Positions 4,334 to 19,145 of a DNA stretch of 64,000 nucleotides are shown piece by piece. The translations under genes and the position numbers were made by a program. Numbering within the stretch: the first letter of the stretch is position 1; each line of letters starts with the position of its first letter. Source of the DNA: Escherichia coli (lineage in GTDB: Bacteria; Pseudomonadota; Gammaproteobacteria; Enterobacterales; Enterobacteriaceae); the NCBI RefSeq assembly GCF_002854065.1, contig NZ_CP024147.1. One strand, given 5' to 3'. Below the pieces are notes generated by a model. That model was not told where the DNA came from, ran no database searches, and was given only the letters and a program-made list of their open reading frames with translations.

Positions 4334-5334
4334 AAACAGAACGTATTCTCGGTGCTCTTTATGGGCAGGCGTTAGGGGATGCGATGGGGATGCCCTCCGA
4401 GCTTTGGCCACGCAGCCGCGTTAAAGCACACTTTGGCTGGATTGACCGTTTTCTGCCTGGACCAAAGGAGAATAACGCGGCCTGTTATTTTAACCGCGCC
4501 GAATTCACCGACGATACCTCGATGGCGCTGTGTCTGGCGGATGCGTTGCTGGAACGTAAAGGCAAGATCGATCCGGATCTGATTGGGCGTAATATCCTCG
4601 ACTGGGCGCTGCGTTTCGACGCCTTCAACAAAAACGTGCTAGGTCCGACCTCGAAGATTGCGCTTAACGCCATTCGCGACGGTAAACCCGTTGCTGAACT
4701 GGAAAACAACGGCGTAACCAACGGCGCAGCGATGCGCGTCTCGCCATTAGGTTGTTTGCTTCCGGCGCGCGATGTTGATTCTTTTATTGATGATGTGGCG
4801 CTGGCGTCGAGCCCGACCCATAAATCCGATCTGGCAGTTGCAGGTGCGGTAGTCATCGCATGGGCGATTTCTCGTGCTATTGACGGAGAAAGCTGGTCAG
4901 CGATTGTTGATTCACTGCCTTCAATTGCGCGACATGCCCAGCAAAAACGCACCACCACGTTCAGCGCCTCACTGGCGGCGCGGCTGGAGATTGCGCTGAA
5001 AATTGTGCGCAATGCCGACGGCACCGAATCCGCCAGCGAACAGCTTTACCAGGTCGTTGGCGCAGGTACCAGCACTATTGAGTCCGTTCCGTGCGCCATT
5101 GCGCTGGTTGAACTGGCACAAACCGACCCGAACCGTTGCGCCGTCCTCTGCGCTAACCTTGGCGGCGATACAGACACCATCGGTGCTATGGCGACGGCAA
5201 TCTGCGGCGCGTTGCATGGCATTAACGCTATCGATCCTGCGTTAAAGGCGGAGCTGGATGCGGTAAATCAGCTTGATTTCAACCGCTATGCCACAGCGCT
5301 GGCGAAATATCGTCAACAACGGGAGGCGGTATGA
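4330..5334 (+). CDS. yegU: ADP-ribosylglycohydrolase family protein
   Basis: 334-aa ORF with ADP-ribosylglycohydrolase-like features (LGDAMGMP... and DTDTIGAMA motifs); overlaps yegT stop by 4 nt. Confidence 0.8.
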   Translation: MKTERILGALYGQALGDAMGMPSELWPRSRVKAHFGWIDRFLPGPKENNAACYFNRAEFTDDTSMALCLADALLERKGKIDPDLIGRNILDWALRFDAFNKNVLGPTSKIALNAIRDGKPVAELENNGVTNGAAMRVSPLGCLLPARDVDSFIDDVALASSPTHKSDLAVAGAVVIAWAISRAIDGESWSAIVDSLPSIARHAQQKRTTTFSASLAARLEIALKIVRNADGTESASEQLYQVVGAGTSTIESVPCAIALVELAQTDPNRCAVLCANLGGDTDTIGAMATAICGALHGINAIDPALKAELDAVNQLDFNRYATALAKYRQQREAV

Positions 5335-6296
5335 GCGGCGCTCGATTACACACGCTGCTGCCTGAATTAACCACGCGTCAGTCGGTGATGGTCGTCGGCG
5401 CGGCGGTCATTGACGTGATCGCCGACGCTTATGCCCTCCCCTGGCGTGGGTGCGATATCGAACTGAAACAGCAGAGCGTTAACGTTGGCGGCTGCGCACT
5501 GAATATTGCCGTGGCGTTAAAGCGCCTCGGCATCGAAGCGGGTAATGCCTTGCCGCTCGGTCAGGGGGTATGGGCGGAGATTATTCGCAACCGGATGGCG
5601 AAAGAGGGGTTAATCAGCCTGATCGATAACGCCGAAGGCGATAACGGCTGGTGTCTGGCGCTGGTTGAGCCGGATGGCGAACGTACTTTTATGTCATTCA
5701 GCGGTGTGGAAAATCAGTGGAATCGCCAGTGGCTGGCGCGATTAACCGTTGCGCCTGGCAGCCTGCTCTATTTTTCCGGTTATCAACTGGCCTCGCCCTG
5801 CGGCGAATTGTTAGTGGAATGGCTGGAAGAGCTGCAAGACGTGACGCCGTTTATCGATTTTGGCCCACGTATTGGCGATATCCCGGATGCATTACTGGCG
5901 CGGATCATGGCCTGTCGCCCTTTAGTGTCGCTCAATCGTCAAGAGGCTGAGATTGCCGCCGAACGTTTTGCTTTATCCGCAGAGATAACAACACTTGGCA
6001 AGCAATGGCAGGAGAAATTTGCCGCGCCGTTGATCGTTCGTCTCGATAAAGAGGGTGCATGGTATTTCAGCAACGATGCTTCTGGCTGCATTCCGGCATT
6101 TCCAACGCAAGTTGTCGACACCATTGGGGCGGGCGACAGTCATGCAGGTGGCGTACTTGCCGGGCTGGCCTCTGGTCTGCCACTGGCGGATGCCGTATTA
6201 CTGGGCAATGCAGTGGCGTCGTGGGTTGTCGGGCATCGGGGCGGTGATTGTGCGCCAACGCGCGAGGAACTACTCCTCGCACACAAAAACGTATAG
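5331..6296 (+). CDS. yegV: PfkB-family carbohydrate/nucleoside kinase
   Basis: 321-aa ORF with ribokinase-family C-terminal motif DTIGAGDSHAGG; overlaps yegU stop by 4 nt. Confidence 0.8.
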   Translation: MSGARLHTLLPELTTRQSVMVVGAAVIDVIADAYALPWRGCDIELKQQSVNVGGCALNIAVALKRLGIEAGNALPLGQGVWAEIIRNRMAKEGLISLIDNAEGDNGWCLALVEPDGERTFMSFSGVENQWNRQWLARLTVAPGSLLYFSGYQLASPCGELLVEWLEELQDVTPFIDFGPRIGDIPDALLARIMACRPLVSLNRQEAEIAAERFALSAEITTLGKQWQEKFAAPLIVRLDKEGAWYFSNDASGCIPAFPTQVVDTIGAGDSHAGGVLAGLASGLPLADAVLLGNAVASWVVGHRGGDCAPTREELLLAHKNV

Positions 6297-7016
6297 ATCG
6301 CTGCGACAGTGGCTAATGCTGTACTCAATAGGCCGTTGCTGTTGGTCAAGCGCCACTTGCTTGATCACCAGCACCGGTATTTTGCTATCTAACTGAATAT
6401 GTGACTGAAACTCGGCATCCGGCATCCGGGCGCTAACGCGGGAACGCGTACGTTGTGGGTAAATGTGCTGGCTGCGGAAATAGTCATAAAGTGAAATCCC
6501 GATGGCATCAACATCATGAATTAAATGCGCCGGAACCCACGATTCCTCAATCGATACCGCTTCTTCATCGACATAGCGAATACGCTTAAGCAAAAAGACA
6601 TCACTTCCTGCTTCGACCGCCAGCTGCTGCGCGACTTCTTCGGGACATTTCACGACACGCTTGTTAACCCATAGCGTATCGGGCTTTTTCCCGCGCAATA
6701 CCACCTGCTGAGAAAAACCTCGCGCTTCTTTCAACGAGTATTCGAAGATGTTGTTGATCTGCGTGCCGTAACCGCGCGAACGCGTCACCACGCCCTCTTC
6801 TTCCAGCGCCTGCATCGCCTTGCGCACCGTAATGCGCGAAACGCCGGTTAACTGACTTAAATCACGCTCACCGGGCAAAATATTGCCATGCTCCAGCACC
6901 CCGCTGCGCACGGCATTTTTTACCGTTTCGGCAAACTTAATATAAAGCGGCGTGTTATCCGCCGCTAAAATACGTTCGTTCAGTTGGGCAATCAGCTGGG
7001 TATGCGCTTCTTCCAT
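6270..7016 (-). CDS. yegW: GntR/HutC-family transcriptional regulator
   Basis: 248-aa ORF with N-terminal GntR helix-turn-helix (LPGERDLSQLTGVSRITVRKAMQALEEEGVV) and UTRA-like C-terminal domain. Confidence 0.85.
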   Translation of the reverse strand: MEEAHTQLIAQLNERILAADNTPLYIKFAETVKNAVRSGVLEHGNILPGERDLSQLTGVSRITVRKAMQALEEEGVVTRSRGYGTQINNIFEYSLKEARGFSQQVVLRGKKPDTLWVNKRVVKCPEEVAQQLAVEAGSDVFLLKRIRYVDEEAVSIEESWVPAHLIHDVDAIGISLYDYFRSQHIYPQRTRSRVSARMPDAEFQSHIQLDSKIPVLVIKQVALDQQQRPIEYSISHCRSDLYVFVCEE

Positions 7017-7067
7017 TTGTCTTTTTCCTGCCAGGAAGTCTGGTGGGAGTATATCACTGCTTCTTAT

Positions 7068-7895
7068 TTAAGGCGTTTCTTTAATCCCATCAACGAATCC
7101 CTGCAACTCCTCCACCGTGCCATTAAACACATTAAAATCCACCGGACCATTGATGCCATCTACCTGTCCACGGTCGGAATGCTGCCAGAAGCGCCAGGCC
7201 ATTCCGTCATTGTCCGGACGACGTTGATAATAGTGAGCCACCCACCACGGATATTCATTAAAATAGCCCGCCAGATTCGTGTGATAAAAAACGGCTCCTG
7301 AGTAAATAATCGGCTTTTTTCCCGTGCGTTTTTCTACCATTTTTAGCCACTGACTTACCCGCTTGCGTAATTCTTTTGCCGATAATTTTCCCCGTTCTTC
7401 TACGTCCAGCACGGCAGGGAAATCGCCTTGTGAGAAATCTACCGTTTGCAGAAATAATCGCGCCTGAACCGGTGCTGCTACCGACGGGGAAAAATAATGA
7501 TACGCCCCGCGCAGCAGGCCATTTTCGCGGCTTAGTTGCCAGTTACGCGAAAAATACGGGTCCACCAGCTTTTCGCCTTCCGTCGCCTTAATAAAAGCAA
7601 ACTGTAAGCGGATACCGTTGTCGCGCATTTTTGCCACCCGCTGCCAGTCGATCCGCTCCTGCCAGCGAGAAACATCTATTCCGTGAATGGTGTAACTGGC
7701 AGGAATGCGAATAGCGAAAGATTTAACCGGGCGATAACCGTAGAAATGGATGTAGTCTGTAATCTGAACTGCTGTCGAATAGAAAAAATTCACCGTCTGA
7801 CGCGGATAAATTGCAACGATGGAAATTAGCCCAAGAGCGCATAATAGAGAGGTGAGTTTTTTTCGACTGGTAATTCTTAGCTGCATTGGTTTCAT
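7068..7895 (-). CDS. yegX: Glycoside hydrolase family 25 (lysozyme-like) protein with signal peptide
   Basis: 275-aa ORF; N-terminal hydrophobic segment and GH25-like region (IHGIDVSRWQ...); position matches yegX. Confidence 0.75.
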   Translation of the reverse strand: MKPMQLRITSRKKLTSLLCALGLISIVAIYPRQTVNFFYSTAVQITDYIHFYGYRPVKSFAIRIPASYTIHGIDVSRWQERIDWQRVAKMRDNGIRLQFAFIKATEGEKLVDPYFSRNWQLSRENGLLRGAYHYFSPSVAAPVQARLFLQTVDFSQGDFPAVLDVEERGKLSAKELRKRVSQWLKMVEKRTGKKPIIYSGAVFYHTNLAGYFNEYPWWVAHYYQRRPDNDGMAWRFWQHSDRGQVDGINGPVDFNVFNGTVEELQGFVDGIKETP

Positions 7896-7950
7896 CCCTG
7901 AATGTCAGTGCCAAAGGCTGACAATAACCAAAGCAGCTATAGTACGGTGC

Positions 7951-8751
7951 TCACCACCAGGCGTGGAAGTGGTGAACCGGACCAATACCGTGACCAACTT
8001 CCAGCGTGTCGGCCTGGGCTAATGCTGATGAAAGCCAGCTTTTTGCCTCCTGTACGGTGTCAGCCCAGTTTGTATGGCGCGGGCGTAGTGCAGCCAACGC
8101 CGCAGAGAGCGTACAACCAGTGCCGTGGGTGTTTTTGGTCATAATGCGCGGTGCGGTAAACCGTTGTTCACCCTCGCGGGTAAACAGCCAGTCCGGGCTT
8201 TGCTCATCATCCAGATGACCACCTTTCATTAGCACTGCGCCACAGCCCATCGCCAACAGCGATCGCCCTTGTTCCAGCATTTCCTGTTCGGTGCGCGCGT
8301 GTGGCGCGTCGAGCAAGGCGGCAGCTTCGGGCAAGTTTGGCGTTATTAATGAAACCTGTGGCAATAATCGACTGCGCAGCGTAGCAACCGCCGAAGGTGA
8401 AAGCAGCGGGTCGCCGCTTTTTGCCAGCATAACGGTGTCGAGTACCACGTTTTGGATCTGATAACGTTGCAACCGTTCTGCCACCGCTTCAACAATATCG
8501 GTTTCCGCCAACATACCGATTTTAGTGGTGTCGATTCGCACATCGCTGAACACCGAATCGAGCTGGGCGGCGACAAAATCAGGCTCAATGCGATACACTG
8601 ACTGTACGCCACGGGTATTTTGCGCCACCAGTGCAGTAATAACTGAGCAACCATAAGCGCCAAGTGCCGAGAAGGTTTTAAGATCGGCCTGAATCCCCGC
8701 ACCACCACTCGGATCAGTACCGGCAATCGTCAGAGCGTTAATTCGTTTCAT
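7951..8751 (-). CDS. thiD: Hydroxymethylpyrimidine / phosphomethylpyrimidine kinase
   Basis: 266-aa [37 protein letters not shown]... recognised as ThiD. Confidence 0.9.
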
Positions 8752-9536
8752 GCCTGCACCTCCTGCGTCAATTGCCAGAGCGCATCAAGGAAATGTGGAA
8801 CAAAACTGCCTGGCCCCTCGCTTCTGGCGACTGCGCGTTCTCCGGCTTGTTTCATCCAGTGACAGGCAGATGCGACATTTTCCAGCGTATCGCCTGGTAA
8901 CGCACAGCAGGCAGCGACAACCGCCGATAATGCACAGCCAGTTCCTACCACTTTGGTCATTAACGGATCGCCACCGTGAATACCAATGATACGATGTCCA
9001 TCGGTAACATAATCCATCTCGCCAGTGACCACGACGATTGCGCCAGTTTCCCGTGCCAGTGTTTGTGCAGCGGGTATCGCGTTAGCTGCGGCGTCAGTGG
9101 TATCCACTCCCCGTCCACCATTAGCAATGCCAGCTAATGCCATGATTTCCGAAGCATTACCACGTATCGCTGCCGGTTTAAAAGATAAAAGTTCATGACA
9201 AAAATGGCGGCGATAATCGAGCGCACCAACCGCTACTGGATCAAGCGTCCAGGGTGTTTGAGAGCTTTTTGCTTGCTCAACGGCAGCACGCATCGCCTGA
9301 GCGCGTGGCTGCGTCAGTGTGCCAACGTTAATCAACAAGGCACTGGCGATAGCCGCAAACTGACTGGCCTCTTCGGTTTCGATAACCATCGCTGGCGATG
9401 CACCGAGCGCCAGCAAGGTATTGGCGGTAAAGGTTTGCACCACATCATTGGTCATGCAGTGCACAAGAGGGGAATGTTGGTGAAAAAGGTGTAACGCGTG
9501 CGCAGATTGCGCTGAACCCAGCAGGTCGACTTGCAT
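8748..9536 (-). CDS. thiM: Hydroxyethylthiazole kinase
   Basis: 262-aa [37 protein letters not shown]... recognised as ThiM; 4-nt overlap with thiD. Confidence 0.9.
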
Positions 9537-9544
9537 AGTTTGCT

Positions 9545-9665
9545 CCTGCCATAACGTGAAGAAGCAATGACCTGGTGGTCCGTGACTTCCCTACGCTGGC
9601 ATTATCCAGATCAGGTGATACGGGTATTTCTCAGCCTTCACGCAGAAGGGCACCCCGAGTCGTTT
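9545..9665 (-). promoter_or_regulatory. TPP riboswitch (THI element) in the thiM leader
   Basis: Minus-strand sequence ...ggggtgcccttctgcgtgaaggctgagaaatacccgtatcacctgatctggataatgccagcgtagggaag... immediately upstream of the thiM ATG matches the thiM TPP aptamer as recalled. Confidence 0.85.
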
Positions 9666-9758
9666 GGTTGCGATGATAAATCGCAGAGGAGGATGGTAAT
9701 GTCCAGCGCACGCGTTGTAAACGAGGAAAAACGGCAGTTTTACAATCGCGTTAATAAA

Positions 9759-10031
9759 TTATTTGATATATGAATCCAGCACCTTCAGAACGACATCCAG
9801 ATCTTCTTCACGTTTTAGCTCATCCCCCTGGTGAACGATGTGTTCCGTCAGATGACCTTTAATCACTTCCCGCATCAGACCGTTTACCGCGCCACGGATA
9901 GCAGCAATCTGTTGTAAAACTGCAGCGCATTCGTGCGGCTCGTCGAGCATTTTCTTGAGCGCCACGACCTGGCCCTGAATCTTACTGGCACGCGCTTTCA
10001 GTTTCTGTTTATCACGGATTGTATGAGACAT
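9759..10031 (-). CDS. rcnR: Ni/Co-responsive transcriptional repressor (CsoR/RcnR family)
   Basis: 90-aa [52 protein letters not shown]... recognised as RcnR. Confidence 0.9.
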
Positions 10032-10077
10032 GGCAACACCTGGTTAACAAGAATATGAAAAATCATAGCACTATTAA

Positions 10078-10112
10078 TCTACTGGGGGGTAGTATCAGGT
10101 ACTGGGGGGGAG
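10078..10112. promoter_or_regulatory. Two RcnR operator sites (TACT-G6/7-N-AGTA) in rcnR-rcnA divergent promoter
   Basis: tactggggggtagta at 10078-10092 and tactgggggggagta at 10098-10112; G-tract inverted repeats of the type described for RcnR binding. Confidence 0.75.
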
Positions 10113-10151
10113 TAGAATCAGATTGCCGAATTAATACTAAGAATTATTATC

Positions 10152-10976
10152 ATGACCGAATTTACAACTCTTCTTCAGCAAGGAAACGCCTGGTTCTTCA
10201 TCCCCAGCGCCATCTTACTTGGTGCGCTTCATGGCCTGGAACCAGGGCACTCAAAAACGATGATGGCGGCGTTTATCATCGCCATCAAAGGCACCATTAA
10301 ACAAGCGGTGATGCTCGGACTGGCAGCAACTATTTCGCATACCGCAGTGGTCTGGTTAATTGCCTTTGGCGGGATGGTGATCAGCAAGCGCTTTACTGCT
10401 CAATCAGCAGAACCGTGGCTCCAGCTGATTTCCGCAGTGATCATTATTAGCACCGCGTTCTGGATGTTCTGGCGTACCTGGCGCGGCGAACGCAACTGGC
10501 TGGAGAATATGCACGGGCATGATTATGAGCATCATCATCACGATCACGAACATCACCACGACCATGGACATCATCACCATCACGAACATGGCGAGTATCA
10601 GGATGCCCATGCACGAGCCCATGCCAATGACATTAAACGACGCTTTGATGGTAGAGAGGTCACCAACTGGCAAATTTTGTTATTTGGCTTAACCGGTGGC
10701 CTTATCCCCTGCCCGGCAGCAATTACCGTGCTGTTGATATGCATTCAGTTGAAAGCCCTGACACTGGGCGCAACACTGGTCGTCAGTTTCAGCATTGGCC
10801 TGGCGTTAACGCCTGTCACCGTAGGCGTTGGCGCAGCAATCAGCGTTCAGCAGGTCGCAAAACGCTGGAGCGGATTTAACACTCTCGCTAAACGCGCCCC
10901 CTATTTTTCCAGTCTGTTGATTGGCTTAGTCGGTGTGTATATGGGCGTACATGGCTTCATGGGCATAATGCGATAA
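10152..10976 (+). CDS. rcnA: Nickel/cobalt efflux membrane protein with His-rich loop
   Basis: 274-aa ORF with HGHDYEHHHHDHEHHHDHGHHHHHEHGEY histidine-rich segment and NiCoT-like transmembrane regions. Confidence 0.9.
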   Translation: MTEFTTLLQQGNAWFFIPSAILLGALHGLEPGHSKTMMAAFIIAIKGTIKQAVMLGLAATISHTAVVWLIAFGGMVISKRFTAQSAEPWLQLISAVIIISTAFWMFWRTWRGERNWLENMHGHDYEHHHHDHEHHHDHGHHHHHEHGEYQDAHARAHANDIKRRFDGREVTNWQILLFGLTGGLIPCPAAITVLLICIQLKALTLGATLVVSFSIGLALTPVTVGVGAAISVQQVAKRWSGFNTLAKRAPYFSSLLIGLVGVYMGVHGFMGIMR

Positions 10977-11194
10977 CTCAATCCTTTAGGCTTGCATGTT
11001 ATCTTCAGCCCAGGATGATTCTTAAATCAGCTATTTCCGCTGACTCTCTGCTCGCTAAGGATGCTTTTAGGGCATCCTTTCATTTACACTTTTTACGAAA
11101 TCATGGGATCACTAACAAAATATCGCTTGTCAGTTATATTGTATGGCAGGAAAGATATGCGACTGATATTACAGATCCCCAAAGTGGAGAGTTT

Positions 11195-11533
11195 ATGACC
11201 ATTAAAAATAAGATGTTGCTGGGTGCGCTTTTGCTGGTTACCAGTGCCGCCTGGGCCGCACCAGCCACCGCGGGTTCGACCAATACCTCGGGAATTTCTA
11301 AGTATGAGTTAAGCAGTTTCATTGCTGACTTTAAGCATTTCAAACCAGGCGATACCGTCCCAGAGATGTACCGCACCGATGAGTACAACATTAAGCAGTG
11401 GCAGTTACGTAACCTGCCCGCGCCTGATGCCGGGACGCACTGGACCTATATGGGTGGCGCGTACGTGTTGATCAGCGACACCGACGGTAAAATCATTAAA
11501 GCCTACGACGGTGAGATTTTTTATCATCGCTAA
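11195..11533 (+). CDS. rcnB: Periplasmic Ni/Co homeostasis protein
   Basis: Translation MTIKNKMLLGALLLVTSAAWAAPA... with signal peptide; 112 aa after trimming the 172-aa ORF. Confidence 0.85.
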   Translation: MTIKNKMLLGALLLVTSAAWAAPATAGSTNTSGISKYELSSFIADFKHFKPGDTVPEMYRTDEYNIKQWQLRNLPAPDAGTHWTYMGGAYVLISDTDGKIIKAYDGEIFYHR

Positions 11534-11558
11534 AAAAAGCCCCCTCATCATGAGGGGG
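11532..11558 (-). terminator. Stem-loop with U-run on the minus strand (candidate rho-independent terminator)
   Basis: gccccctcatcatgagggggc hairpin; on the minus strand it is followed by a T7 run. Confidence 0.5.
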
Positions 11559-11614
11559 AAATGCAGACACCTTGTTATTTTTTATTATTAGCCACTTGCT
11601 CGTCTTGCTTGTTA

Positions 11615-11761
11615 TTAGTCGTATTTCACGTTGATTAATGCGGTTGCCTCCAGTGCGCCAGATTTAATTTTATTTGTATCGTAGACGTAGTAACTGGCTG
11701 TTATCGGAATTGAAACCGTTGTATCTGTAAGTTTTGACTTTGCCGCAATTTCTTTTAAATT
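11615..11761 (-). pseudogene. yehA: 3' remnant of a fimbrial-subunit-like gene (yehA position) truncated by IS1
   Basis: Minus-strand frame reads ...NLKEIAAKSKLTDTTVSIPITASYYVYDTNKIKSGALEATALINVKYD* and runs open into the IS1 end at 11764; gene identity inferred from position next to rcnB. Confidence 0.5.
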
Positions 11762-11778
11762 TGGGTAATGACTCCAAC

Positions 11779-12282
11779 TTATTGATAGTGTTTTATGTTC
11801 AGATAATGCCCGATGACTTTGTCATGCAGCTCCACCGATTTTGAGAACGACAGCGACTTCCGTCCCAGCCGTGCCAGGTGCTGCCTCAGATTCAGGTTAT
11901 GCCGCTCAATTCGCTGCGTATATCGCTTGCTGATTACGTGCAGCTTTCCCTTCAGGCGGGATTCATACAGCGGCCAGCCATCCGTCATCCATATCACCAC
12001 GTCAAAGGGTGACAGCAGGCTCATAAGACGCCCCAGCGTCGCCATAGTGCGTTCACCGAATACGTGCGCAACAACCGTCTTCCGGAGCCTGTCATACGCG
12101 TAAAACAGCCAGCGCTGGCGCGATTTAGCCCCGACGTATCCCCACTGTTCGTCCATTTCCGCGCAGACGATGACGTCACTGCCCGGCTGTATGCGCGAGG
12201 TTACCGACTGCGGCCTGAGTTTTTTAAATGGCGGAAAATCGTGTTGAGGCCAACGCCCATAATGCGGGCGGTTGCCCGGCAT
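11779..12282 (-). CDS. insB: IS1 InsB reading frame (transposase made as InsAB' by -1 frameshift)
   Basis: 167-aa ORF ...[54 protein letters not shown]... recognised as InsB; overlaps insA 3' end. Confidence 0.9.
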
Positions 12283-12476
12283 CCAACGCCATTCATGGCC
12301 ATATCAATGATTTTCTGGTGCGTACCGGGTTGAGAAGCGGTGTAAGTGAACTGCAGTTGCCATGTTTTACGGCAGTGAGAGCAGAGATAGCGCTGATGTC
12401 CGGCAGTGCTTTTGCCGTTACGCACCACCCCGTCAGTAGCTGAACAGGAGGGACAGCTGATAGAAACAGAAGCCAC
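12201..12476 (-). CDS. insA: IS1 InsA protein
   Basis: 91-aa [46 protein letters not shown]... recognised as InsA. Confidence 0.95.
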
Positions 12477-12600
12477 TGGAGCACCTCAAAAACACCATCA
12501 TACACTAAATCAGTAAGTTGGCAGCATCACCGACTTTGTAGAGTTTCGGACGAAGGTCCGCAGAATATTCGCAGTATTAAATAAGTGTTCATTAATGCGG

Positions 12601-12642
12601 CAAAAACTAATACACCGCATCAATGTAACATCTCTGCGGTGT
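12601..12642 (-). terminator. Candidate rho-independent terminator downstream of mrp
   Basis: Inverted repeat acaccgca...tgcggtgt; on the minus strand followed by a T-rich run (rc of caaaaactaat). Confidence 0.55.
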
Positions 12643-12672
12643 ATGAAGAATAACCAGAATGGTTAATAGGCG

Positions 12673-13782
12673 TTAGACCGCGCGGAAGGAAATCTCGCCT
12701 GGAATGACTTCACCCTGCCAGTAGAGCTGAGCTGCAACGCGGTCAGCCAGCTGGCGGTAGATAGCGGTAAATTCGCTCTCCGGACGGCTGATAACCGTTG
12801 GCGTGCCTTTATCGAGATCCTCACGTAAGGAGATGTGTAACGGCATCTGCCCCAGCAGCTGTGTGTGGTATTTTTCAGCCAGTTTCTCTGCACCACCGGT
12901 ACCGAAAATCGGTTCATGGTGACCACAGTTACTGCAAATATGCACACTCATGTTCTCGACAATACCAAGCACCGGAACCTCGACTTTCTCGAACATCACA
13001 ATGCCTTTTTTCGCATCGATCAACGCGATGTCCTGCGGGGTGGTGACCACGACTGCACCAGTTACTGGAATGTTTTGCGCCAGCGTCAATTGAATGTCAC
13101 CGGTGCCTGGCGGCATATCAAGCACCAGATAGTCGAGATCCGGCCACAAGGTTTCCTGCAACATCTGCATTAACGCCTTGCTCGCCATCGGTCCACGCCA
13201 CACCATCGCATTGTCGTCAGTGACCAGATAACCAATTGAATTGGTTGCCAGGCCATGAGACATAATCGGTGCCATATGGGTACCGTCCGGCGAAGTTGGA
13301 CGCTGATTTTCTGCGCCCAGCATGGTGGGAATTGATGGGCCGTAGATATCGGCGTCCAGAATGCCGACTTTCGCCCCTTCCGCCGCCAGTGCCAGCGCCA
13401 GGTTTACCGCCGTGGAGGATTTACCCACGCCGCCTTTACCGGAACTGACCGCAATGATGTTCTTCACACCATTAATACCCGGCTGATTCTTCACGCGTTT
13501 TAAGGTGGCGATATTGTGCGACAGTTTCCAGTCGATAGCTTTCGCCCCGGTGATACGCAGCAGTTCGGCGCTACATTGCTCTTTTAACTCTTCAAACGCG
13601 CTATGCCAGACGAATGGCATAACCAGTTCCACATGCAACGTGTCGTCCATCCAGGCGACATGGTGCAACGCTTTCAGCGTGGTGAGGTTATGCTTCAGGG
13701 TTGGGTGCTGAAAATTGGCCAGTGTCCCGGCGACCATTGCGCGCAAGGCTTCTGGTGATTTGGCCTGGGATTGTTCGTTCAT
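12673..13782 (-). CDS. mrp: Fe-S cluster carrier ATPase (Mrp/ApbC/NBP35 family)
   Basis: Translation MNEQSQAKSPEALRAMVAGTLANFQHPTLKHNL... with Walker A GKGGVGKSS; 369 aa after start trimming. Confidence 0.9.
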   Translation of the reverse strand: MNEQSQAKSPEALRAMVAGTLANFQHPTLKHNLTTLKALHHVAWMDDTLHVELVMPFVWHSAFEELKEQCSAELLRITGAKAIDWKLSHNIATLKRVKNQPGINGVKNIIAVSSGKGGVGKSSTAVNLALALAAEGAKVGILDADIYGPSIPTMLGAENQRPTSPDGTHMAPIMSHGLATNSIGYLVTDDNAMVWRGPMASKALMQMLQETLWPDLDYLVLDMPPGTGDIQLTLAQNIPVTGAVVVTTPQDIALIDAKKGIVMFEKVEVPVLGIVENMSVHICSNCGHHEPIFGTGGAEKLAEKYHTQLLGQMPLHISLREDLDKGTPTVISRPESEFTAIYRQLADRVAAQLYWQGEVIPGEISFRAV

Positions 13783-13913
13783 CCCGACTCCTTTTTTGTA
13801 TAGATAAACCATCAGCTGATAGTTTACCTGAAGAATATAGAGAAGTACTTACTTAACATTTTCCCATTTGGTACTATCTAACCCCTTTTCACTATTAAGA
13901 AGTAATGCCTACT

Positions 13914-15947
13914 ATGACTCAAGTCGCGAAGAAAATTCTGGTGACGTGCGCACTGCCGTACGCTAACGGCTCAATCCACCTCGGCCATATGCTGGAGCAC
14001 ATCCAGGCTGATGTCTGGGTCCGTTACCAGCGAATGCGCGGCCACGAGGTCAACTTCATCTGCGCCGACGATGCCCACGGTACACCGATCATGCTGAAAG
14101 CTCAGCAGCTTGGTATCACCCCGGAGCAGATGATTGGCGAAATGAGTCAGGAGCATCAGACTGATTTCGCAGGCTTTAACATCAGCTATGACAACTATCA
14201 CTCGACGCACAGCGAAGAGAACCGCCAGTTGTCAGAACTTATCTACTCTCGCCTGAAAGAGAACGGTTTTATTAAAAACCGCACCATCTCTCAGCTGTAC
14301 GATCCGGAAAAAGGCATGTTCCTGCCGGACCGTTTTGTGAAAGGCACCTGCCCGAAATGTAAATCCCCGGATCAATACGGCGATAACTGCGAAGTCTGCG
14401 GCGCGACCTACAGCCCGACTGAATTGATCGAGCCGAAATCGGTGGTTTCTGGCGCTACGCCGGTAATGCGTGATTCTGAACACTTCTTCTTTGATCTGCC
14501 CTCTTTCAGCGAAATGTTGCAGGCATGGACCCGCAGCGGTGCGTTGCAGGAGCAGGTGGCAAATAAAATGCAGGAGTGGTTTGAATCCGGCCTGCAACAG
14601 TGGGATATCTCCCGCGACGCGCCATACTTTGGTTTTGAAATTCCGAACGCGCCGGGCAAATATTTCTACGTCTGGCTGGACGCACCGATTGGCTACATGG
14701 GTTCTTTCAAGAATCTGTGCGACAAGCGCGGCGACAGCGTAAGCTTCGATGAATACTGGAAGAAAGACTCCACCGCCGAGCTGTACCACTTCATCGGTAA
14801 AGATATTGTTTACTTCCACAGCCTGTTCTGGCCTGCCATGCTGGAAGGCAGCAACTTCCGCAAGCCGACCAACCTGTTTGTTCATGGCTATGTGACGGTG
14901 AACGGCGCAAAGATGTCCAAGTCTCGCGGCACCTTTATTAAAGCCAGCACCTGGCTGAATCATTTTGACGCTGACAGCCTGCGTTACTACTACACTGCGA
15001 AACTCTCTTCGCGCATTGATGATATCGATCTCAACCTGGAGGATTTCGTTCAGCGTGTGAATGCCGATATCGTGAACAAAGTGGTTAACCTGGCCTCTCG
15101 TAATGCGGGCTTTATCAACAAGCGTTTTGACGGCGTGCTGGCAAGCGAACTGGCTGACCCGCAGTTGTACAAAACCTTCACTGATGCCGCTGAAGTGATT
15201 GGTGAAGCGTGGGAAAGCCGCGAATTTGGTAAAGCAGTGCGCGAAATCATGGCGCTGGCTGATCTGGCTAACCGCTATGTCGACGAGCAGGCTCCGTGGG
15301 TGGTGGCAAAACAGGAAGGCCGCGATGCCGACCTGCAGGCAATTTGCTCAATGGGCATAAACCTGTTCCGCGTGCTGATGACTTACCTGAAGCCGGTACT
15401 GCCGAAACTGACCGAGCGCGCAGAAGCATTCCTCAATACAGAACTGACCTGGGATGGTATCCAGCAACCGCTGCTGGGCCACAAAGTGAATCCGTTCAAA
15501 GCGCTGTATAACCGCATCGATATGAAGCAGGTTGAAGCACTGGTGGAAGCATCTAAAGAAGAAGTGAAAGCAGCTGCCGCGCCAGTTACTGGCCCACTGG
15601 CAGATGATCCGATTCAGGAAACCATCACCTTTGACGACTTCGCAAAAGTTGACCTGCGCGTGGCGCTGATCGAAAACGCAGAGTTTGTTGAAGGTTCTGA
15701 CAAACTGCTGCGCCTGACACTGGATCTCGGCGGTGAAAAACGCAATGTCTTCTCCGGTATTCGTTCTGCCTACCCGGATCCGCAGGCACTGATCGGGCGT
15801 CACACCATTATGGTGGCCAACCTGGCGCCACGTAAAATGCGCTTTGGTATCTCCGAAGGCATGGTAATGGCTGCTGGTCCTGGCGGGAAAGATATCTTCC
15901 TGTTAAGCCCGGATGCTGGTGCTAAACCAGGCCATCAGGTGAAATAA
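13914..15947 (+). CDS. metG: Methionyl-tRNA synthetase
   Basis: Translation [38 protein letters not shown]... with HIGH and KMSKS motifs; 677 aa after start trimming. Confidence 0.95.
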
Positions 15948-15956
15948 TCCCCCTTC

Positions 15957-15986
15957 AAGGCGCTGCATCGACAGCGCCTTTTCTTT
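15957..15986 (+). terminator. Rho-independent terminator downstream of metG
   Basis: aaggcgctgcatcgacagcgcctt hairpin followed by ttctttat. Confidence 0.65.
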
Positions 15987-16034
15987 ATAAATTCCTAAAG
16001 TTGTTTTCTTGCGATTTTGGGTAATGACTCCAAC

Positions 16035-16538
16035 TTATTGATAGTGTTTTATGTTCAGATAATGCCCGATGACTTTGTCATGCAGCTCCACCGATTTTGA
16101 GAACGACAGCGACTTCCGTCCCAGCCGTGCCAGGTGCTGCCTCAGATTCAGGTTATGCCGCTCAATTCGCTGCGTATATCGCTTGCTGATTACGTGCAGC
16201 TTTCCCTTCAGGCGGGATTCATACAGCGGCCAGCCATCCGTCATCCATATCACCACGTCAAAGGGTGACAGCAGGCTCATAAGACGCCCCAGCGTCGCCA
16301 TAGTGCGTTCACCGAATACGTGCGCAACAACCGTCTTCCGGAGACTGTCATACGCGTAAAACAGCCAGCGCTGGCGCGATTTAGCCCCGACGTATCCCCA
16401 CTGTTCGTCCATTTCCGCGCAGACGATGACGTCACTGCCCGGCTGTATGCGCGAGGTTACCGACTGCGGCCTGAGTTTTTTAAATGGCGGAAAATCGTGT
16501 TGAGGCCAACGCCCATAATGCGGGCGGTTGCCCGGCAT
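16035..16538 (-). CDS. insB: IS1 InsB reading frame (copy 2)
   Basis: 167-aa ORF identical to copy 1 except one residue (YDSLRK vs YDRLRK). Confidence 0.9.
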
Positions 16539-16732
16539 CCAACGCCATTCATGGCCATATCAATGATTTTCTGGTGCGTACCGGGTTGAGAAGCGGTGTA
16601 AGTGAACTGCAGTTGCCATGTTTTACGGCAGTGAGAGCAGAGATAGCGCTGATGTCCGGCAGTGCTTTTGCCGTTACGCACCACCCCGTCAGTAGCTGAA
16701 CAGGAGGGACAGCTGATAGAAACAGAAGCCAC
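16457..16732 (-). CDS. insA: IS1 InsA protein (copy 2)
   Basis: 91-aa ORF identical in translation to copy 1 InsA. Confidence 0.95.
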
Positions 16733-16787
16733 TGGAGCACCTCAAAAACACCATCATACACTAAATCAGTAAGTTGGCAGCATCACC

Positions 16788-17282
16788 CTGCTGACGTTAT
16801 CCCTTCCGGCATCTGCCTGTTCTCCTTTTGCCGTTGAACGCATGGCGGCGCTTTTGCAACAAACAGACGACCCCGTGAGTCTGGTTTCTGGCTTTGTCAG
16901 CTTTGTAGAGGGGCAATTGACACTGGAACCACGGGTGATGATGACAAAAACCCGTGCCTGGGCGCTGGACGCGGAAACTGCGCCTGTGGCACCGCTACCT
17001 TCTGCCAGCGTTTTGCCTGTGCCGTCTACCGCTCATCAGTTGCTGATGCGCTGCCAGGCGTTACTTATTCAACTGCTCCATAACGGCTGGCGCTATCAGG
17101 AACAGAGCGCTATTAGTCAGGCAGAGTTGCTGGCGAATGACCTCACCGCGGTGGGTTTTTATCGGCTGGCACATGTGTTGGCACAATTTCGTAATACAGA
17201 AAGCGAGGCACGGGTAGAAGCAATGAATAACGGTGTTTTGCTTTGCGAACAATTATTCCCCATGCTTCAGCAACAAGGATGA
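16788..17282 (+). pseudogene. yehQ: 3' fragment of the gene upstream of yehR (yehQ position), truncated at its 5' side by IS1
   Basis: Plus-strand frame is open from the first base after the IS1 end (16788) through ORF 16842..17282; no start context or promoter; identity inferred from position. Confidence 0.45.
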
Positions 17283-17406
17283 AATAGTGCTTTTTACTAA
17301 GAGTTCTACTCCAGTTCCGGACTGCTCACACCACGGTATTAGGCATATCCTATATAGCCCCTGGTGAGAGTCACCAGTTTCTTGATTAAATAAAATGGAG
17401 TTTTAC

Positions 17407-17868
17407 ATGAAGGCTTTCAATAAGCTGTTTTCCCTCGTTGTTGCATCTGTTCTGGTTTTCTCTCTTGCTGGCTGCGGTGACAAAGAAGAATCGAAGAAAT
17501 TCAGCGCCAATCTGAACGGCACTGAAATTGCCATTACCTATGTCTACAAAGGTGACAAAGTGCTTAAGCAATCTTCTGAAACCAAAATTCAATTTGCCTC
17601 CATTGGTGCAACCACCAAAGAAGATGCTGCCAAGACACTTGAGCCGTTAAGCGCCAAATACAAAAACATCGCGGGTGTTGAAGAAAAATTAACCTATACC
17701 GATACCTACGCGCAGGAAAACGTGACTATCGATATGGAAAAAGTGGATTTTAAAGCCCTGCAGGGTATTTCAGGAATCAACGTTTCTGCTGAAGATGCCA
17801 AAAAAGGTATCACTATGGCGCAAATGGAACTGGTGATGAAAGCCGCTGGTTTTAAAGAAGTGAAATAA
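17407..17868 (+). CDS. yehR: Lipoprotein of unknown function (DUF1307 family)
   Basis: Translation MKAFNKLFSLVVASVLVFSLAGCGDKEE... with lipobox LAGC; 153 aa after start trimming. Confidence 0.85.
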   Translation: MKAFNKLFSLVVASVLVFSLAGCGDKEESKKFSANLNGTEIAITYVYKGDKVLKQSSETKIQFASIGATTKEDAAKTLEPLSAKYKNIAGVEEKLTYTDTYAQENVTIDMEKVDFKALQGISGINVSAEDAKKGITMAQMELVMKAAGFKEVK

Positions 17869-17908
17869 TCTGTCGGCGGCCATGTTTCGCATGGCCGCCA
17901 TACCCGTC

Positions 17909-18379
17909 TTAGCTTTTCTTCACATGCTGGCGCGCTGCCAGTCCACGCAGAAAATAACGTAAAAATTGATCGCCGCATTCGCGGAAGTTTTTATGATCCG
18001 GTGCGCGCATCATCGCTGTAATTTCCGGCATCGAAACGCGGAACTGCTGTTCGGTGAGGATAGCCAGAATGTCATCGGTTTTCAGCGAAAACGCGATGCG
18101 TAATTTTTTCAGCACGATGTTGTTATTAATGCGACGTTCCGGCTCCAGTGCCGGAGCAGACTCATCCTTGCCGCGTTTTTCATAAATCAGGCCATTGAGG
18201 AATGACGACAAAACAATGTCCGGACAACGCTGAAAACCCTCTTCGTCTTCTTTACGTAGCCAGACGGCGATCTGTTCCGCGGTGGCTTCGACATTACCCA
18301 GCGCCAGAATACGCACCAGGTCATTATTATTGGCTTTCAAAATGTAGCGCACGCTACGCAGAATATCGTTACTTAGCAT
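17909..18379 (-). CDS. yehS: DUF1456-family protein
   Basis: Translation MLSNDILRSVRYILKANNNDLVRILALGNVEATAEQIAVWLRKEDEEG...; 156 aa after start trimming. Confidence 0.8.
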   Translation of the reverse strand: MLSNDILRSVRYILKANNNDLVRILALGNVEATAEQIAVWLRKEDEEGFQRCPDIVLSSFLNGLIYEKRGKDESAPALEPERRINNNIVLKKLRIAFSLKTDDILAILTEQQFRVSMPEITAMMRAPDHKNFRECGDQFLRYFLRGLAARQHVKKS

Positions 18380-18425
18380 GAGGCCTTCAGGTGTTGATGA
18401 GGCAAAAAGCCATTTTAGCAGTCTT

Positions 18426-19145
18426 TTACAGGCCAATCGCCTCTTTTAAGCTTTTCAGATAACGGCGGCTGACCGGCACGGTTAAGCCATTACGCAAAAT
18501 CAACTCGGCCTGGCCGTTATCTTCCAGACGAATCTCCTGTAAATGCGCGAGGTTAACCAGATACTGACGATGGCAGCGCAGTAGTGGTGTACGACTTTCC
18601 AGGGTACGTAATGTCAATTCGGTAAAGCCCTCTTTCCCTTCGTGGCTGGTAACGTAGACACCGCTCATTCGACTGCTGACAAATGCCACATCTTTCATTT
18701 GCAGCAAATAAATCCGACTATGCCCCGTACAAGGGATAAATTTCAGCGCCTGTTGATTTTCCGGTAACAGCGAAACATCCTGCTTGCTGCGCTCCTGACG
18801 CAATCGCGCCAGCGTTTTCTCCAGCCGCGCTTCATCAATTGGCTTCAGCAGATAATCAAAGGCATGTTCTTCAAAGGCTTTAATAGCGTATTCGTCAAAC
18901 GCAGTGAGAAAAACAATATACGGCCGATGTTCCGGGTCAAGCATCCCCACCATTTCCAGACCACTGATGCGCGGCATCTGGATATCGAGAAACAGCACAT
19001 CCGGGCGCAGTTTATGCACCGCGCCGATCCCTTCCACGGCGTTTGAACACTCTCCAACGATTTCAATATCGCTCTGCTCCTGCAAAAATACACGCAGGTT
19101 CTCCCGTGCTAACGGTTCATCATCGACAATTAAGACTTTAATCAT
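18426..19145 (-). CDS. btsR: LytTR-family two-component response regulator
   Basis: Translation [23 protein letters not shown]... with receiver domain and LytTR DNA-binding domain; 239 aa. Confidence 0.9.

Follow-up and report, generated by a model that had tools for sequence, protein, structure and literature searches.

The DNA ahead of yehR in Escherichia coli contains, as a native and conserved part of it, a perfect 7-3-7 inverted repeat (CTGGTGA-GAG-TCACCAG; positions 17361..17377, + strand, of the window, i.e., of the whole 64-kb stretch analyzed here), which is predicted to form an RNA hairpin. We tentatively read this palindrome from its sequence as a small RNA stem-loop that would form close to or directly at the start of the yehR message, an assignment to which we give somewhat less than an even chance. 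The stem-loop, with a 7-bp stem, a GAG loop and a predicted energy of about -9 kcal/mol, would form no more than a few nucleotides from the mRNA 5' end, and its most likely role would be to make this end less accessible to RppH and RNase E. Thereby, the weakly transcribed yehR message would be stabilized. In yehQ read-through transcripts, the hairpin together with its U-rich tail could additionally act as a weak terminator. The gene yehR (17407..17868, +) encodes an uncharacterized DUF1307 lipoprotein of 153 aa (WP_001295429.1, PF06998) with hardly any expression under laboratory conditions; the stakes are modest and the results leave the current understanding of bacterial gene control unchallenged. 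The conserved promoter region and the hairpin offer a defined target for work on yehR with reporters and with mapping of the 5' end.

The palindrome and its position relative to IS1

It was noted earlier that a perfect inverted repeat ctggtga-gag-tcaccag lies about 30 bp upstream of the yehR start codon, between an IS1-truncated gene and yehR, and direct reading of the sequence confirms all of this. The 5' arm ctggtga covers positions 17361-17367, the loop gag 17368-17370 and the 3' arm tcaccag 17371-17377; the arms are not extendable as C17360 would face T17378. The last base of the palindrome is located 30 nt before the yehR ATG (17407), with 29 nt in between, and the 3' remnant of yehQ ends at 17282. 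Eight perfect 7-3-7 palindromes are present in the 64-kb window vs. 4.2 +/- 1.7 expected from first-order Markov simulations. With eight observed and about four expected per window the palindrome at 17361-17377 is by itself unremarkable, and as it is not rare by chance its significance must rest on conservation and on context. A second copy with two or fewer mismatches is found nowhere else in the window. Matches with three mismatches are in excess in the window, which probably reflects that CTGGTG and CACCAG are common hexamers in E. coli coding sequences. The palindrome occurs at a median of one place per genome, i.e., it does not behave as a repeat of the REP/BIME type, and the covariance models of Rfam 15 returned chance-level matches alone (E >= 0.8), none of which overlaps the palindrome.

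In the window, metG (13905-15947) is followed by IS1 (16020..16787, -, 768 bp), by the yehQ 3' remnant (16788..17282, +), which encodes the end of a SWIM zinc-finger protein cut by IS1, by yehR and then by yehS, btsR and btsS on the minus strand. IS1 stands in place of 14.2 kb of the K-12 MG1655 chromosome (2196406-2210607, corresponding to 4407-18607 of the K-12 locus L001), and the K-12 genes missing under it are yehF, yehH, yehI, yehK, yehL, yehM, yehP and the 5' part or most of yehQ. As no target duplication flanks the element, the arrangement is attributed to an IS1-mediated adjacent deletion. The native yehQ-yehR spacer of 125 bp is complete in the window and the end of IS1 is 573 bp away from the palindrome. 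It had been suggested that IS1 replaces the native upstream context, so that yehR may depend on whatever promoter overlaps the palindrome. This is unsupported, since the entire spacer is native, including a conserved upstream box and a -10-like hexamer, and the palindrome is the same in some 93% of the complete E. coli genomes lacking this IS1 junction. K-12 MG1655, which carries no IS1 at this site, has the identical palindrome, the sole nearby difference being TTC for TTT just 3' of it. The 14-kb IS1-mediated deletion left the own control region of yehR untouched.

The same arrangement is present in strain CUWW06, which is the only 100% match over 17150-17550 among the matches listed, and in E. 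coli E69 metG is also followed by a short yehQ remnant. In E. coli ET650 (NZ_CP100936.1, L040 1430-1560) an independent IS1 directly abuts the palindrome (...GGAGTCACTACC|CCTGGTGAGAGTCACCAG) and the associated deletion removes the 3' part of yehF, everything up to and including yehQ, and the whole yehR box and -10 region; judged from its sequence, ET650 represents a natural promoter-less yehR allele that retains the hairpin. The yehQ gene of K-12 contains a premature TAG (L001 about 18943-18945) where the window has GAG (17130-17135), and therefore the annotated K-12 yehQ ends 280 bp from yehR instead of 125 bp.

Conservation of the stem and recurrence of the pairing

The palindrome was found as a single copy in at least 5053 of 5426 complete E. 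coli genomes (about 93%), counted by exact words of at least 28 nt from a 30-mer spanning the -10-like region and the palindrome. An alignment of eight Escherichia sequences, from E. coli, K-12, E. albertii, E. whittamii and cryptic-clade strains, shows no variation in any of the 14 stem columns, in a spacer with 27% variable columns (hypergeometric P = 0.0085, and 0.0026 if the block with the ribosome-binding site is left out). This conservation of the stem columns places the palindrome above chance. The loop center changes from A to C in E. albertii (GAG to GCG) and both flanks of the palindrome vary across Escherichia. As the stem is invariant in the alignable Escherichia sequences, there is no strict column-wise covariation. 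Natural variants of the stem were nevertheless encountered: the allele of E. coli N96, CTGGTG-TGGT-CACCAG, is one base shorter and has lost the innermost pair in favor of a tetraloop, and its predicted energy is -8.8 kcal/mol vs. -9.3 kcal/mol for the common form. One assembly carries a CCGGTGA arm that weakens the stem to -5.6 kcal/mol and that is possibly a sequencing error. E. fergusonii has at the same position an unrelated 13-bp hairpin, GCGCC-A-CTGGCA ... TGCCAG-GGCGC, with -22.9 kcal/mol and z = -4.5 (0/200 shuffles).

The yehR loci of Escherichia species, Citrobacter, Salmonella, Superficieibacter, Phytobacter and others were compared. Among the genera sampled, Escherichia alone carries the yehF-yehQ island between metG and yehR, in the other genera metG with its own strong terminator is located directly 5' of yehR, and the order yehR-yehS-btsR-btsS is kept in all of them. 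A CTGG or CTGA is found 8-9 nt past a TATYCT hexamer in most lineages, with CTGC, TTGC or CAGG in three species. In about six of nine independent lineages the arm led by CTGG has a perfect complement of 4-7 nt within 45 nt (Fisher combined P = 2.6e-4, with one P per independent lineage, corrected for choosing the best species within the lineage). The distance from CTGG to this complement ranges from 6 to 24 nt among lineages, with values of 6, 7, 8, 9, 21, and 22 for CTGG to CCAG. Examples are CTGGTAT-AC-ATACCAG in Citrobacter HRGM66, CTGGCAT-ATGCCAG in Enterobacteriaceae MGYG110, CTGG-N21-CCAG in C. portucalensis and C. youngae, and CTGG-N21-CCAG plus an inner stem in Citrobacter Res13. The hairpin is weak or absent in Salmonella, Citrobacter FP75 and On2M, C. 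braakii and C. werkmanii (z about 0) and likewise weak or absent in Superficieibacter. The MAFFT alignment of these short hairpins was not used for column-wise pair counts because of misplaced gaps. Different lineages would repeatedly have evolved a downstream complement to a fixed 5' CTGG sequence.

Some further features of these loci were observed. The yehR leaders of several non-Escherichia loci (L016-L018, L041, L042, L010-L012) contain another small hairpin, whose loop is U-rich, e.g., GTGC-ATTATTTTTCG-GCAC, followed by a U-run and situated just 5' of the conserved block ATAAAATGGAG; this second hairpin is absent in E. coli. Salmonella enterica encodes a second DUF1307 paralogue directly 3' of yehR (L035 3131-3661) and in one Enterobacteriaceae contig a DUF1307 paralogue is located directly 5' of yehR (L042 1569-2027).

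The putative promoter and the folding of the leader

The presumed promoter or activator region of yehR is marked by a conserved box, CTACTCCAGTTCCGGACTGCTCA (17308..17328, +), which reads ACTCCATTTYCGGACTGCTNA in other genera and has the consensus ACTCCATTTYCGGACTGCTCA; no transcription factor or sigma factor could be matched to this box. These 21 nt are common to Escherichia, Citrobacter, Salmonella and Superficieibacter (L008-L015, L019-L021, L035, L037, L038), they are kept whether yehQ, as in Escherichia, or metG, as in the other genera, lies upstream, and they end 17 nt 5' of a -10-like hexamer. This hexamer, TATCCT (17346..17351, +), was identified in an anchored comparison and is TATYCT in nearly all orthologues. 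Both elements are native and conserved and would constitute the yehR promoter region. If TATYCT serves as -10 element, yehR transcription would start at about 17357-17363, i.e., where the 5' arm of the palindrome begins or immediately ahead of it. As the CTGG that opens this arm follows the hexamer by 8-9 nt, where transcription should begin, we infer that the yehR mRNA begins with the hairpin or close to it. A start at 17357-17358 would leave 3-4 unpaired bases before the stem, which is borderline for a protection of the 5' end. In a scan for sigma-70 consensus promoters, none was placed on the -10-like hexamer in the four loci of E. coli, E. fergusonii, C. portucalensis and Citro_Res13, the last of which gave one unrelated match, and the -10 assignment therefore derives from conservation.

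A yehR transcription start has no entry in Kim (2012), Ettwiller (2016), Sastry (2019), or Canals (2019), and yehR was at array background under standard conditions (Cho, 2014). The full-text literature contains almost nothing on yehR regulation beyond a remark that yehR is up-regulated in a cya mutant (PMC4512719) and a sigma-32 ChIP signal at yehR (Wade, 2006) that was not reproduced (PMC2996942). Several other assignments were considered and rejected. A promoter for a leaderless mRNA that uses TAAAAT (17391-17396) is disfavored by a good GGAG Shine-Dalgarno sequence 6 nt before the ATG and by an unconserved -35 position, and an in-frame ATG upstream (17395), considered as the true yehR start, is separated from the annotated ATG by a stop codon in Salmonella and in MGYG110. 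In a comparison of consensus sequences by eye, none of sigma-32, sigma-E, sigma-54, the RcsB box, the BaeR box, the BtsR/YpdB LytTR repeats, CRP and LexA fits both sequence and spacing.

Folded alone, the hairpin has a predicted energy of -8.3 kcal/mol (z = -2.5), and of -9.3 kcal/mol in its local context. The hairpin ends 20 nt 5' of the Shine-Dalgarno sequence GGAG (17397-17400) and thus leaves the ribosome site unmasked. This Shine-Dalgarno sequence and the yehR ATG are part of the block ATAAAATGGAGTTTTACATG (17390..17409, +), which is invariant in Escherichia and nearly so in the other genera, where the YehR proteins are 65-75% identical; judged from the sequences, its conservation exceeds what a Shine-Dalgarno sequence alone needs. 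The asymmetry of G-U versus C-A, taken as indicator of the strand that folds, gave a mixed and uninformative outcome. The hairpin does not appear in the minimum free energy fold of the full spacer, the form contained in read-through RNA. The segment CTCACACCA of the presumed -35 region (17325-17333) has eight of nine positions complementary to TGGTGAGAG (17362-17370), comprising 5' arm and loop, and this pairing replaces the palindrome hairpin in the full-spacer fold. CTCACACCA could compete with the hairpin solely in yehQ read-through transcripts.

A further-reaching interpretation, which we consider quite improbable, is that the hairpin is one part of a conserved cis-regulatory yehR leader in Escherichia, Citrobacter, Salmonella and relatives, and that stem and U-tract form a regulated promoter-proximal attenuator rather than a passive stabilizer. 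Such a leader would be composed of the ACTCCATTTYCGGACTGCTCA box, the non-consensus -10 element, the start-proximal stem, the U-rich stretch and the ATAAAATGGAGTTTTACATG block; the 3' arm of the stem would have been re-invented repeatedly, and stem and U-tract would answer to some factor.

Alternative explanations and comparison with known systems

The hairpin is followed by a U-rich tail, TTTCTTGATT (17378..17387, +; TTCCTTGATT in the K-12 allele), which was matched in a scan for terminator-like sites, and the two might be a weak Rho-independent terminator or insulator that stops yehLMPQ read-through into yehR or that acts as a leader attenuator on the transcripts of yehR itself. No terminator-like site other than palindrome plus TTTCTTGATT was found from the yehQ stop (17282) up to yehR, the stem of 7 bp with four G-C pairs and a GAG loop lies within the range of terminator stem-loops (about 5-14 bp), and U-rich tails also follow the strong hairpins in E. 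fergusonii and in Citrobacter Res13. Moreover, the co-directional yehF-yehQ island 5' of yehR is confined to Escherichia, with the strongly terminated metG in the other genera, and it is in Escherichia that the neatest hairpin with U-rich tail was found. We regard this explanation as unlikely, as the stem is short for a terminator (7 bp, -8 to -9 kcal/mol) and the tail is interrupted and polymorphic, being UUUCUUGA in about 46% of the genomes, which are identical to the window over 17358-17409, while the K-12-type UUCCUUGA is apparently the commonest alternative. Among the matches listed, the remaining ~54% apparently have mostly this K-12-type TTC tail. The window tail UUUCUUGA passes a lenient 5-of-8 rule, whereas the TTC tail UUCCUUGA, tested on the carrier strain Esch_MOD1, fails it. 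In the Term-seq tables no + strand 3' end is listed at the site, although low expression could hide one, and the only 3' end near yehR belongs to the yehS terminator at 2211688(-) (Adams, 2021; PMC7815308). CTGG-anchored hairpins also occur in genera without a read-through problem, in which metG has its own terminator. Because the hairpin is located 3' of the presumed yehR promoter, a terminator would also attenuate yehR itself.

It had been suggested that the palindrome could be a transcription-factor site, or an RNA hairpin if it falls within the 5' UTR. An RNA hairpin fits better than a transcription-factor site, as the spacing of the arms varies between lineages and in E. coli N96 while the pairing is kept; the position in the UTR would follow from the putative promoter. 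That a dimeric repressor uses the palindrome as DNA operator over the yehR transcription start is considered very improbable. The perfect dyad with its 7-bp half-sites would be centered around the predicted +1, its arms are invariant in Escherichia, where only the central base varies, and yehR is reported to be up-regulated in a cya mutant (PMC4512719). However, the CTGG-CCAG spacing takes values of 6, 7, 8, 9, 21, or 22 nt depending on the lineage and is shifted by 1 bp in E. coli N96, which would be incompatible with a dimer of fixed geometry but is compatible with a folded single strand. The half-sites GGTGA/TCACC appear similar to CRP half-sites, but the 3-bp spacer of the palindrome does not match the 6 bp that separate the two halves of a CRP site. 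Genomes carry the element as a single copy, without a second copy of up to two mismatches in the 64-kb window, and we know of no factor that matches the palindrome as operator. A further point against it is that reproduction of the sigma-32 ChIP signal at yehR failed (PMC2996942). It is somewhat doubtful, yet quite conceivable, that the palindrome arose by chance, has no function of its own and is conserved owing to close relatedness and to overlapping constraints on the promoter and the initial transcribed sequence. In its favor, about four such palindromes are expected per 64 kb with eight seen, conservation was shown in one genus alone at a P of about 0.01, several genera have no hairpin, and the window is enriched in near-matches, CTGGTG and CACCAG being frequent hexamers in E. 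coli. Different hairpins built on the same CTGG in independent lineages and the folding energy preserved in natural variants speak against it.

The putative yehR leader hairpin is an ordinary kind of feature whose function is uncharacterized. It resembles intrinsic terminators in its G+C-containing stem, in the U-rich run on its 3' side and in its location 79 nt past a co-directional stop codon, and it differs from these in its weak stem, its interrupted and polymorphic U-tract and the absent Term-seq 3' end. With operators at +1 it shares perfect dyad symmetry at the predicted start and invariant arms in Escherichia, whereas its half-site spacing is not conserved and further copies are not found in the 64-kb window. 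In E. coli, stem-loops at the very 5' end of the mRNA, of the type present in the ompA 5' UTR, protect mRNAs from RppH and from 5'-end-dependent RNase E. In contrast to these, the stem ahead of yehR has only 7 bp, its position relative to the 5' end derives from the putative promoter with 3-4 unpaired nucleotides possibly preceding the stem, and the hairpin is absent in several related genera. In analogy to the ompA-type structures, the yehR hairpin is short and stable, it is predicted to lie few nucleotides from the transcript start and well 5' of the ribosome-binding site, and its pairing would be kept while the partner arm and the loop differ between lineages.
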